Of a stretch of DNA of 30,389 nucleotides, positions 15,215 to 20,755 are shown in pieces (the stretch's first letter is position 1; every line of letters begins with the position of its first letter). The stretch is from an uncultured archaeon (lineage in GTDB: Archaea > Asgardarchaeota > Lokiarchaeia > Sigyniarchaeales > SOKP01), in the NCBI GenBank assembly GCA_964388035.1, contig CAYLZE010000062.1, forward strand, positions 1 through 30,389. The letters are read 5' to 3'. The translations under genes and the position numbers were made by a program. The notes below the pieces were generated by a model, which worked only from the letters and a program-made list of their open reading frames with translations, searched no databases and was not told where the DNA came from.

Positions 15215-15748
15215 CTAAGATTGATAAAATTGAATTATATCATACTCTTCTTTTGTAGGCAGCTCGAATACCCGAAAGAACATTTCTATGATATTTAATG
15301 GTACGTTATCCTTCCGCTTTTCATTTCTCTCAATGACGATTTCTCGGGAGACCAGCAACACTATCATGCGAATTTGCCGATTTTCGCATCTGGCCATTTG
15401 AACAAACGGATACCGTAGGCCGTGGTGAATGTTGGTGGCGTCAAGGATGCACTCCCATGTGGAAGAAGTAATGCATTCGTAAGCTCGCACCTCAATTTCA
15501 TGCCAGATTTCCGCTTCTTTTTCTTCATCGAATTGCATTCCTGTCTCTTCATAATTTAAGATCTTTCTTCTGATCGCATCCGAGCTAATTACCTTGCGCA
15601 TCTCCGGAACTGTTTCTACCAGTATTTTTGCGAGAGTAGATTTTCCCGAGCAAGGAACCCCCACTAGCATCGTGAGTGATTTTTTGGAAGGAAGCTCAAC
15701 AATATTATCTATTGATGTGAGGTTGAATTTCTCGCTATTTTTGCTCAT
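15215..15748 (-). CDS. AAA_33 / polynucleotide-kinase-like P-loop kinase
   Basis: Walker A GVPCSGKST, ISSDAIR, ILDATN, and lid motif RNEKR..VP. Confidence 0.88.
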   Translation of the reverse strand: MSKNSEKFNLTSIDNIVELPSKKSLTMLVGVPCSGKSTLAKILVETVPEMRKVISSDAIRRKILNYEETGMQFDEEKEAEIWHEIEVRAYECITSSTWECILDATNIHHGLRYPFVQMARCENRQIRMIVLLVSREIVIERNEKRKDNVPLNIIEMFFRVFELPTKEEYDIIQFYQS

Positions 15749-17648: not shown

Positions 17649-17957
17649 AAACTACTAACTTGATTTAATAGAAATCAATATTTCAAAGCGATTATGGGAC
17701 AAGAGAATAGAAGGTGTCTCCATTAAATTAAACTTTAATTTTTGTATAAAGATAATCTTTAAATTCTAAAATTCTTGAAATTTTATCTCAAGTATTTTAT
17801 TTATTGGTCAAGTTACCGATCAATTTTTACTTGTTAGATTGTTATTGATGAAAATTAAATTTTTAAATGTAATACTAAGGAAGTATTAAAAAATAATGGT
17901 AGGAAGGGGATTTGAACCCCCGAAGGCCTTTGCCACTGGATCTTAAGTCCAGCACCT

Positions 17958-17973
17958 TTGGTCTTGACCCAAT
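17958..17973 (-). other. tRNA intron 2 (16 nt, near position 21/22), canonical BHB
   Basis: Central helix GGTC/GACC with AAA bulges on both strands, flanked by TTG/CAA and CT/GG pairs. Cutting after the second bulge nucleotide removes ATTGGGTCAAGACCAA. Confidence 0.85.
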
Positions 17974-17982
17974 TTGACCAGG

Positions 17983-18014
17983 TTCCCGAAAGGCATGTCA
18001 AATGTGCGAATTTT
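17983..18014 (-). other. tRNA intron 1 (32 nt, near position 15/16), relaxed BHB/BHL
   Basis: ACCG/CGGG central helix (one mismatch), bulges AGA and AAC, and inner helix AAA/TTT. Removal restores GAG|CCTGG. The exact boundaries could shift by 1-2 nt. Confidence 0.7.
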
Positions 18015-18421
18015 CTCGGTAATCCTACCAGCATAGAGCAAAAATTTGCGATAAGATTTATTGAAAGGTGTTAATTTGTTTTAACAATTCATTGTAAGAT
18101 TAAAACAATAATTATAAAAAGAAATAAGAATAATTTAAAGTTTACTTAATCCCGAGGCTCATTAAATATCTTAAATTGTATCGATGAATTTAATTTAGAA
18201 AATTATTAAGCCCTTAATATAAGAATCTTTTAAAAAAGCGATGGTAAAAATCATTCCTTAAAAGGTTTTCTTTTGTGAGAGATGAACTTAAATCTCATGA
18301 AGGATATGATATTATATATAGAAAAATTTGAATATATTTTTCAATTTAAAGATCTTGACAAATATTTAAGTATTAAATAGAACAATAAAGTAGTCACATA
18401 TATTGAGGAAAAGCGAAACTG

Positions 18422-19143: not shown

Positions 19144-20755
19144 TTAATCAAAGGAGGAATCAAGGTAGATTAAACATCCATTCACAGCTTTGACGCTTTG
19201 AATGGAACATTCTTTTTTAAAATAATTCTGAAATTCTTGTTGAATTTTTTCCATAATGAATTGAGCATAAGATCTTTGTACAAGAAGCATCGCACATCCT
19301 CCCAACCCTGCACCAGATAATTGAGCTCCGATTATTCCCCTGTACTTTTTGGAAATATCGATGATAAAATCAATTTCAAGAATGCTACAGCCATACCCTC
19401 CACTAATTTCTGAAAGATCAAAAGAATTGCCATCATTTTCGCTCATAGATATTAAGCTTTTTACATGATCGTCAGATAAATCATTTTCTCTATTCACTTT
19501 TTCCTATGTATTGTTGAAAATAACCCGCTTATCCCCATCATGTGAAATGAACAACAAATTCCCAATTGCCTCATTATTTTCCTTCTTAAGTAATTGAATA
19601 AACTGCTTACTTCTTTCGCATTCAGATATACTGAAAGCCATAACATTTCGGATCGGTAATTCTTTTGGTTTGACTTGAAAGGAGTATTTTGCCTTAAATT
19701 CTTGCCATTCTTTTGGTAAAAGCGTGGGTAGCTCATCATATGATACTTTTTCAGGTATTTCTAATAATAATTTTAAAATCTCAGAATTTTTTATCGATAG
19801 GGTTTCAGAATTGAGATCTCTTAGATGATTTAATTTACTCTGAATAAAAAGGGGTAATTTTTTCTTTAATAAGGCAAGCCCAACCTCATATACTAAAATT
19901 TTTTCATTAAATTAATCCCGCTTTCCCGATGACTTATCGGCCATGACATTGGAATCGACCATTAGAATGTCTACCTCTTCGGGAATAGGTACCATTTCAA
20001 GAACTTCCAAATCAAAGAATTTTACATGAGACACCATGTTATTCCGGCACTTTTTTATAGCAACATGATCCCCGGCACCCCCTCTCGTTCCTAAAAACCA
20101 TTCTGCTTCGGATGAAAGCCTTATAAGCTGCTCCTCACTAAAATTCAACCTGTTCCAAAAGTTCATTGACTCTAAAATTGCCACTGTAATTGCAGAGGAG
20201 CTACCTACCTCAGCGGCGATTGGAATATTTCCTAAAACACAATAATTAGCGCCACATAAAGAATGAGTGGGTTTGAAAGACATCACACGAAAGAGAACAG
20301 CTTTGAAATAATTTTCCCAATGACCATTTGCAGAACAAAATCGTTTCATCTTATCTTGATCTTCAACCATTTCAAACCACTCCTCTAAAATTAAGGCGGG
20401 ATATTTTGAGAAATTTAAATTAATACTTGGAAATTGCTCGCTATTATCATTATGAGCGATGACAGCTTGATCACTTCTAAAAGAGGAAGTCATAAAAATC
20501 TCTCTGTCAATTGCGATTAAATTCACGCACCATCCTCTGTGATCGATGTGCCTTCCCATTAGATTAATTCTTCCGGGGACTTCTTATAAGAATAATATCT
20601 TCTTGTCCAAATTTTTGAACATGGAGATTTAAGATTCTTAAGATATCTTGTCTTTTTTGATCTAACCTTGCATAATTATCGCCATAATCCTTCTGTAAAA
20701 AGGCTTTAGAATTTTTAGAGTTTTGAAAAAATTGTATCCATTGTACCACATTCAT
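19144..20755 (-). pseudogene. galK: Galactokinase-family (GHMP kinase) pseudogene
   Basis: One extra base in the G-run at 20575..20578 breaks SPGRINLMGRHIDH. In-frame stops occur at TAA 19912..19914 and TAG 19504..19506, while the reading frame continues (FNEKI...HLRD...SECERS...SHDGD...YGCS...GAQLSGAGLGG). The GHMP PxxxGLxSSA motif reads PIAAEVGSSSA. Confidence 0.9.

Follow-up and report, generated by a model that had tools for sequence, protein, structure and literature searches.

Contig CAYLZE010000062.1 of the GenBank assembly GCA_964388035.1, from an uncultured archaeon of the Asgardarchaeota (Lokiarchaeia; Sigyniarchaeales; SOKP01), was analysed over positions 1 to 30,389, and this whole stretch of 30,389 nucleotides (nt) is called the window. 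Its minus strand carries a transfer RNA (tRNA) gene for leucine with the anticodon UAA, interrupted twice within the D-loop (Table 1). The acceptor stem is a perfect helix of 7 base pairs (18029-18023 with 17904-17898), and a discriminator A is located at 17897. The 5′ strand of this stem is followed by U8 and U9 and then by the 5′ strand of the D-stem. CCA is not encoded. The gene has 133 nt, whereas Leu(CAG) and Leu(UAG) of this genome, which contain no intron, have 85-88 nt; the excess of 48 nt agrees with the overlong D arm described in the initial annotation of this DNA. The anticodon loop is contiguous and contains no insert at 37/38, as had also been noted, and no open reading frame (ORF) of at least 60 amino acids overlaps the gene.

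When the three exons are joined by their coordinates (18029-18015, 17982-17974 and 17957-17897), a sequence of 85 nt is obtained, for which ARAGORN draws the flawless cloverleaf of a class II tRNA-Leu(taa). Removal of both inserts restores the canonical cloverleaf, as expected for introns of the bulge-helix-bulge (BHB) type, and with it the Leu D arm that had been predicted to be regenerated. The D-loop of the spliced form has the same length as in the Leu(CAG), Leu(UAG) and Leu(CAA) genes of this genome. The cut site of intron 2 can slide within its runs of A, which leaves the spliced product unchanged. The twice-interrupted tRNA-Leu(UAA) is thereby confirmed as a real gene at the exact coordinates that had been claimed for it. 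It is very probably a functional gene, the sole one for Leu(UAA) found in the assembly, with a 133-nt precursor and two protein-spliced D-loop introns at 15/16 and 21/22.

Table 1. Elements of the tRNA-Leu(UAA) locus, in the order of transcription. Positions refer to the window.
Feature	Positions	Strand	Description
TATA-like A/T-rich box AATAAAT	18056-18062	minus	27-33 nt upstream of position 1; recognized by eye; putative promoter
tRNA-Leu(UAA) gene, 133-nt precursor	17897-18029	minus	acceptor stem, spliced cloverleaf and covariation in 32 orthologs
Exon 1	18015-18029	minus	tRNA positions 1-15: acceptor 5′ strand, U8, D-stem 5′ strand, A14, G15
Intron 1, 32 nt, between 15/16	17983-18014	minus	relaxed BHB; CCG/CGG with the D-stem 5′ strand
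Exon 2, 9 nt	17974-17982	minus	D-loop positions 16-21, including G18 and G19
Intron 2, 16 nt, at 21/22	17958-17973	minus	central helix GGTC/GACC
Conserved tag TGGGTCA within intron 2	17965-17971	minus	
Exon 3	17897-17957	minus	positions 22-73: D-stem 3′ strand, anticodon arm, long variable arm, T-arm, acceptor 3′ strand, A73
Anticodon TAA	17945-17943	minus	
T-run TTATTTTTT	17888-17896	minus	directly 3′ of the discriminator; putative terminator

The boundaries of the inserts are defined by comparison with related genomes. A DNA search of 60 relatives returned 30 loci, 27 of which contain the exact anticodon arm. All 27 orthologs have an insert of 16 to 66 nt at 21/22. An insert at 15/16 is present in eight of them; it is 27-32 nt long and always located at the same site, with conserved ends and differing inner hairpins. 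In the 19 orthologs without intron 1, CCGAG runs directly into YNTGGTCAA, the equivalent of exon 2. These uninterrupted D-loops fix the limits of intron 1 and identify the 9-nt piece as an exon. The orthologs make two non-canonical D-arm introns around a 9-nt exon, as proposed in the initial annotation, the best supported reading. One could also imagine a single composite insert of 57 nt (18014-17958), removed in one step with the 9-nt piece discarded, and BHB-like windows that reach across both inserts do exist (e.g., rows 10,66 and 11,56 of the motif scan). Such an event would, however, delete G18 and G19 and leave a D-loop of 4 nt, and the 9 nt in question are contiguous with exon 1 in 19 of the 27 orthologs and nearly invariant. 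A composite insert is the least probable of the explanations and barely credible.

With 16 nt, both genomes of this genus have the shortest 21/22 intron, followed by one of 28 nt. In the second genome of the genus, G001, both introns are kept; its acceptor and T stems show compensatory changes, and the hairpin of its intron 1 differs. Within the genus g2, intron 1 is present in G014 and G035 and absent from G021, which indicates that the 15/16 site gains or loses its intron. Six more distant relatives likewise have the 21/22 insert, and the interrupted design is kept across at least three families. In the 3′ half of the gene, a further insert is lacking from 12 of the 27 orthologs; 11 contain one (28-36 nt), three contain two (58-61 nt), and in one this half lies off the contig. 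The number of introns per ortholog ranges from 1 to 4. Up to four introns (15/16, 21/22, variable arm and T-loop) were identified in the loci L028 (G004, 295-529), L025, L027 and L030 (G029). The G029 ortholog shows an extra insert of ~36 nt immediately after the anticodon loop.

Selection on the cloverleaf was assessed in a MAFFT alignment of 32 orthologs. Twenty-three cloverleaf pairs were counted, outside a misaligned stretch of the D-loop (exon 2 of the genome under study, G000, and of G001). Standard pairs occupy 99.7% of the 690 cells. Changes on both sides were found in 13 of the 23 pairs, including six of the seven acceptor pairs, all three pairs of the variable arm and the D-stem pair 10-25, which is AU in 27 sequences and GC in three. 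None of 500 shuffles reached any of the five measures of pairing, a count that is not a probability because the sequences are related. The controls with slid partners (34-57% paired after a shift of 1-3 columns) and the number of pair types agree with it. As both inserts lie between the partners of pair 10-25, this pair can form only after their removal.

Standard searches miss the gene, as had been anticipated. On the raw DNA, ARAGORN reports a different 85-nt gene (17896-17980). This call was rejected, as it contains three acceptor mismatches and ignores the perfect stem starting with 18029-18023. The tRNA model of Rfam gives no match at the locus at E values up to 10, and the contig of the window (C62) is absent from its 19 genome-wide hits. 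Over the whole assembly (5.47 Mb, 211 contigs, 33% G+C), ARAGORN lists 22 tRNAs, several of them mis-named, and a scan anchored on the T-arm and the acceptor stem yields 23 plausible tRNA-like genes, 17 of which are longer than 95 nt. No second Leu(UAA)-like gene, which the initial annotation had considered as a counter-argument, was found by ARAGORN or by the pattern scans of the assembly. The "tRNA-Leu(taa)" that ARAGORN places on contig C39 (C39:34506-34607) was rejected based on a G3-U70 acceptor pair and a CGC anticodon hairpin, both recognized by eye; it looks like an Ala(CGC) gene with a D-arm insert. The high frequency of TTA mentioned in the initial annotation was also found genome-wide. 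Among 2,049 ORFs of at least 300 codons, TTA represents 43.2% of the leucine codons (43.9 per 1000) and is the fifth commonest codon.

The stretch occurs in 16 DNA runs, 15 from salt marsh metagenomes and one from a sediment metagenome. A contig of the independent salt-marsh run X2 (record 3) is identical to the window over 17925-18229, indicating that the interruptions did not arise in the assembly of a single sample. Several other contigs match part of the stretch or stem from relatives, and the loose ends seen in other runs correspond to the relatives' versions of the gene, in which the 21/22 intron is longer. A tRNA pseudogene that is decaying or unprocessed, in which the extra 48 nt would be junk that is never removed, could be argued from the rejection or mis-calling of the locus by standard tRNA finders, and from the absence of RNA runs among those that contain the stretch. 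This is very improbable in view of the compensatory changes in every stem across the 32 orthologs and the interrupted design conserved in at least three families. Moreover, the gene is the only Leu(UAA) candidate, while TTA is the top leucine codon.

The machinery to process such a gene appears to be present. The alpha subunit of the splicing endonuclease EndA is a protein of 202 amino acids (G000:C146:8038-8646) with both Pfam domains (99 and 32 bits, the former for PF01974). Its best solved relative is 3p1z_B (E 1e-35, 179 residues aligned). In this one pairwise alignment, the segments NKPR and EKPR stand opposite each other, which by position aligns a lysine with K44 of the solved enzyme. 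According to a passage of PMC5829648, K44 is the lysine of the L1/CSL loop that gives EndA its broad substrate range. The beta subunit (200 amino acids, G000:C33:37574-38176, 68 bits with PF01974) has no His at the catalytic position where alpha has one, as expected of a structural beta subunit. EndA alpha is 71-86% identical at 80 loci of metagenome-assembled genomes (MAGs). The taxon-named ones belong to Promethearchaeota, Promethearchaeia and other Asgard phyla (Odin-, Hermod-, Hod- and Thorarchaeota), and the rest are titled "uncultured archaeon", which places the genome among the Loki-type Asgard archaea (Promethearchaeota). The RNA ligase RtcB is encoded as well (552.7 bits, frame open). 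As judged from these sequences, the genome encodes a predicted two-subunit EndA with the broad-specificity loop lysine, plus RtcB. The broad-specificity endonuclease postulated for this lineage is thus matched by a pair of genes, and the pair has the architecture, a catalytic alpha and a His-less beta paralogue, of an (alpha-beta)2 enzyme. As far as it is described in PMC5829648, the (alpha-beta)2 EndA of the crenarchaeon Aeropyrum pernix (3P1Z/3AJV) likewise combines the loop lysine with a second, non-catalytic paralogue, the Asgard enzyme being known here from its sequence. The same source assigns an (alpha-beta)2 EndA with the L1 loop to Asgard archaea.

The splicing motifs were examined on paper and by folding. 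Intron 2 received a BHB score of 4,3,2 and is one of only two windows of the scan in which all three helices have at least 2 base pairs. On paper, the central helix GGTC/GACC (with G18-C20a) is paired at 4/4 positions, bulges of AAA are cut after their second A on both sides, the inner helix is TTG/CAA and the outer helix has 2 base pairs. The textbook BHB assigned to 21/22 in the initial annotation stands in this form, but not in the fold. The inner helix (3 base pairs, 3-nt loop) has an ensemble pair probability of 0.14, compared to 0.73-0.74 for the central helix, and the minimum-energy fold contains a 4-bp outer helix, a 2-nt bulge and a 12-nt loop. This outer helix is formed by the last base of intron 1 and C16-U17a, paired with A22-U25. 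The predicted fold is a bulge-helix-loop.

Intron 1 scores 3,3,0 at the boundaries given by the comparison, with three of four central pairs and a 3-bp inner helix. The central pairs are compatible with the relaxed BHB announced near 15/16, although the motif scan is not specific when compared to shuffled sequences. Cutting one base further in on each side would give an intron 1 of 30 nt (18013-17984) and a D-loop two bases longer. In this register, the helix of C11-A14 with UCGG has 4/4 central pairs (row 16,46: 4,2,0), each at an ensemble probability of 0.91. The T preceding CGG, which could pair with A14, was seen by eye in six of the eight orthologs that bear intron 1. The distance from G15 to G18, however, is three bases in the 19 orthologs lacking intron 1 and in the three other Leu genes, and would become five. 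For two of the eight orthologs, G014 and G035, neither register gives 4/4. The 30-nt register is therefore considered unlikely, and the 32-nt intron of Table 1 is retained.

The two introns would be removed as follows. Before splicing, the two strands that later form the D-stem would be engaged in splicing helices. C11-G13 would pair with the CGG close to the 3′ end of intron 1, and G23-U25 with the last base of intron 1 and C16-U17a, which would form the outer helix of intron 2. The central helix of intron 2 would be provided by G18-C20a and GACC. The (alpha-beta)2 endonuclease with its broad-specificity loop would cut at the bulges or loops, and RtcB would join the three exons. Only afterwards would the D-stem and the normal 13-nt D-loop form. 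Transcription, cleavage at exactly these bonds and ligation are what we infer for this gene. The motifs of both introns co-exist in the minimum-energy fold, and at least that of intron 1 survives the removal of the other intron. As both motifs can form together, no splicing order is required.

Some observations weigh against two functional introns in a single Leu(UAA) gene. The motif of intron 1 is a relaxed one, with 3/4 central pairs and the outer helix absent, and the thermodynamic model yields a continuous 6-bp helix that contains its 5′ cut site. The junctions were deduced from DNA, as the runs listed for the stretch are all DNA runs. The scans would overlook a second copy if it had an intron in the T-arm and another anticodon stem, and the assembly is 96.7% complete with 7.3% contamination. 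The BHB scan of the 133 nt returned 29 canonical-like and 31 relaxed motifs, compared to means of 23.2 and 28.7 in 200 shuffles. The same point about relaxed BHB-like motifs arising by chance is made in section 2.4 of Goswami et al. 2026 (bioRxiv 10.64898/2026.10.13.758758). Because hits of the scan are as common in shuffles, the case for the gene rests on comparison and not on the motif.

Multi-intron tRNA genes were associated with Thermoproteales in the initial annotation. In this order, tRNA genes reportedly contain up to three BHB introns at non-canonical sites, separated by short exons, and are said to depend on a broad-specificity (alpha-beta)2 EndA. The likeness in mechanism holds, but the host is an Asgard archaeon, from a different phylum and not a member of that order, and such genes are already known from Asgard archaea. 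Some Thermoproteales introns are reportedly nested and removed in order. In contrast to these, the two motifs described here lie side by side and can form together.

For three Asgard genomes, Valentin-Alvarado et al. 2024 (PMC11291895) found introns in 92-95% of the tRNA genes, often multiple and at non-canonical sites. Passages of Goswami et al. 2026 state that tRNAscan-SE overlooks 30% of the inserts in the families under focus and 25% of those in other Asgard families, that half of the missed inserts are located in the D-arm, that gains are repeated and that 44 of 60 genomes have two EndA paralogues. The gene of the window resembles these published genes, as far as their descriptions in the two sources go, in having at least two non-canonical introns, overlooked D-arm inserts and putative BHB-type boundaries. 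Further points of likeness are the two EndA paralogues and a site that repeatedly gained or lost its intron in related genomes. In contrast to the focus of the published cases on Atabeyarchaeia, Freyarchaeia and Jordiarchaeia, apparent from those sources, it stems from a Loki-type family. By its lineage, its two D-loop inserts and the failure of ARAGORN and Rfam, the gene fits the published class, and as multi-intron Asgard tRNA genes have been described, it is of an ordinary, already known kind for this group. The fixed 21/22 intron with its invariant tag is the only feature that might exceed published work.

The GGGTC of this tag is invariant in all 32 aligned orthologs. In the long forms of intron 2, it lies in the loop closed by the inner hairpin, a place at which it is not required for the splicing motif. 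In these long forms (G013, G021, G005 and others), the central helix is built by GGTC and GATT and includes two G-U pairs; GACC forms part of the inner hairpin (GGTCTT/AAGACC). In the genus studied here, GATT and the 5′ strand of the hairpin have been lost from intron 2, and GACC now pairs with the exon. From these sequences, the helices may have exchanged roles as the intron shrank. The 16-nt intron corresponds approximately to the tag plus the splicing helix and looks like a natural deletion experiment in which the tag was kept.

A box C/D small RNA (sRNA) similar to sR47 was found outside the window, unannotated, on the plus strand of another contig (G000:C7:61554-61617). It had been sought via an anticodon-directed guide only and not via the tag. 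It is composed of ATGATTG, an 11-nt guide, CTGA, an 18-nt hairpin spacer, ATGAAGA, a 12-nt guide and CTGA. The C, D′, C′ and D boxes are at guide spacing, with an A/T box upstream and a T-run downstream. No Rfam family matches it at threshold. The D guide places C34 of tRNA-Leu(CAA) (C31:19047-19160) at the fifth position from box D, and pairs with tRNA-Leu(UAA) through a G-U at nucleotide 34. Between the D′ guide and intron 2, 10 of 11 consecutive positions are paired. Seven of these are contiguous Watson-Crick pairs, a number reached by 0.8% of intron 2 shuffles. Both guide cores (CTGACCC for D′) are kept in 23 of the 30 sRNA loci fetched from relatives. In the relatives, the sRNA has a long terminal stem, and the D box is degenerate in many of them (NTGA, NCGA). 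A pattern search in five more distant genomes found the sRNA in G042 only. In this member of another family, the tag and the guide pair at 12 consecutive positions, three of them G-U.

As described in PMC3413156, sR47 of Pyrococcus abyssi is the box C/D guide for Cm34 of tRNA-Leu(CAA), and the boxes of the C7 sRNA and the placement of nucleotide 34 of tRNA-Leu(CAA) at the fifth position are alike. A passage of PMC11408192 reports that the intron of Haloferax tRNA-Trp contains a box C/D guide. Here too, an intron would take part in the guided methylation of nucleotide 34, but unlike the Haloferax intron as presented there, which is itself the guide, intron 2 would be bound by the second arm of the guide, as suggested by complementarity and conservation. 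It is possible, though short of probable, that the tag is bound by the D′ arm of the sRNA, that this helps to recruit the methylation machinery for the wobble nucleotide 34 of leucine tRNAs to the precursor before splicing, and that the 21/22 intron persists in every ortholog for this reason. Two comparisons of tag and guide speak against such a docking. Within the family, their flanks do not co-vary, with 0 of 8 tag changes compensated in 17 genomes, and the pairing in these genomes is of 8 base pairs in five, 7 in four and 6 in eight. For a ribosomal RNA (rRNA) target of the D′ arm, the partial 23S of this genome contains two 7-nt matches but no 8-nt match, and the 23S and 16S of G026, G044 and G050 contain no exact 9-nt match, mismatched targets being outside this test. 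A genome-wide search for the tag near T-arm-like motifs was dropped as too permissive, since most of its 103 hits were coding.

Elsewhere in the window, a GHMP-kinase-like gene on the minus strand (19144-20559) has the N domain PF00288 and the C domain PF08544. It appears as three ORFs, as its single frame is interrupted by two stop codons, at 19912-19914 (TAA) and 19494-19496 (TAG), without a frameshift. These stops could reflect a pseudogene, recoding or a sequencing error. A 177-amino acid ORF on the same strand (15215-15748) matches AAA_33 (PF13671) and KTI12 (PF08433).

Other tRNA genes of the assembly are interrupted or mis-named as well. The "Ser(cga)" reported by ARAGORN at C31:19047-19160 is the Leu(CAA) gene, with an insert near the variable arm, and a "Pyl(cta)" resembles an intron-containing Gln gene. 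The interrupted genes of this set also comprise C7:54735-54839, C27:34463-34587 and C47:35349-35510; the genes of 125 and 162 nt probably have two or more introns each. Near-duplicate tRNA genes (e.g., two Gln-like and two Ser-like) fit the 7.3% contamination or a strain mixture. The 16S rRNA gene is not in the assembly, and of the 23S only the 3′ half is present (C23:53762-55777).

Neither ARAGORN nor the Rfam tRNA model recognizes the tRNA for the commonest leucine codon of this archaeon, and only about 23 tRNA-like genes can be found in 5.5 Mb. As such finders miss interrupted genes, tRNAs that seem to be lacking from MAGs of this kind reflect detection failures and not biology. The gene adds one more well-documented case in which Loki-type Asgard archaea depend on broad-specificity tRNA splicing for essential translation. 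Within one and the same loop, a sporadic 15/16 intron (8 of 27) is found beside a fixed 21/22 intron (27 of 27), which would be expected if the fixed intron had gained a function. If the docking of the guide RNA is true, it would provide a selective reason for keeping some archaeal tRNA introns.

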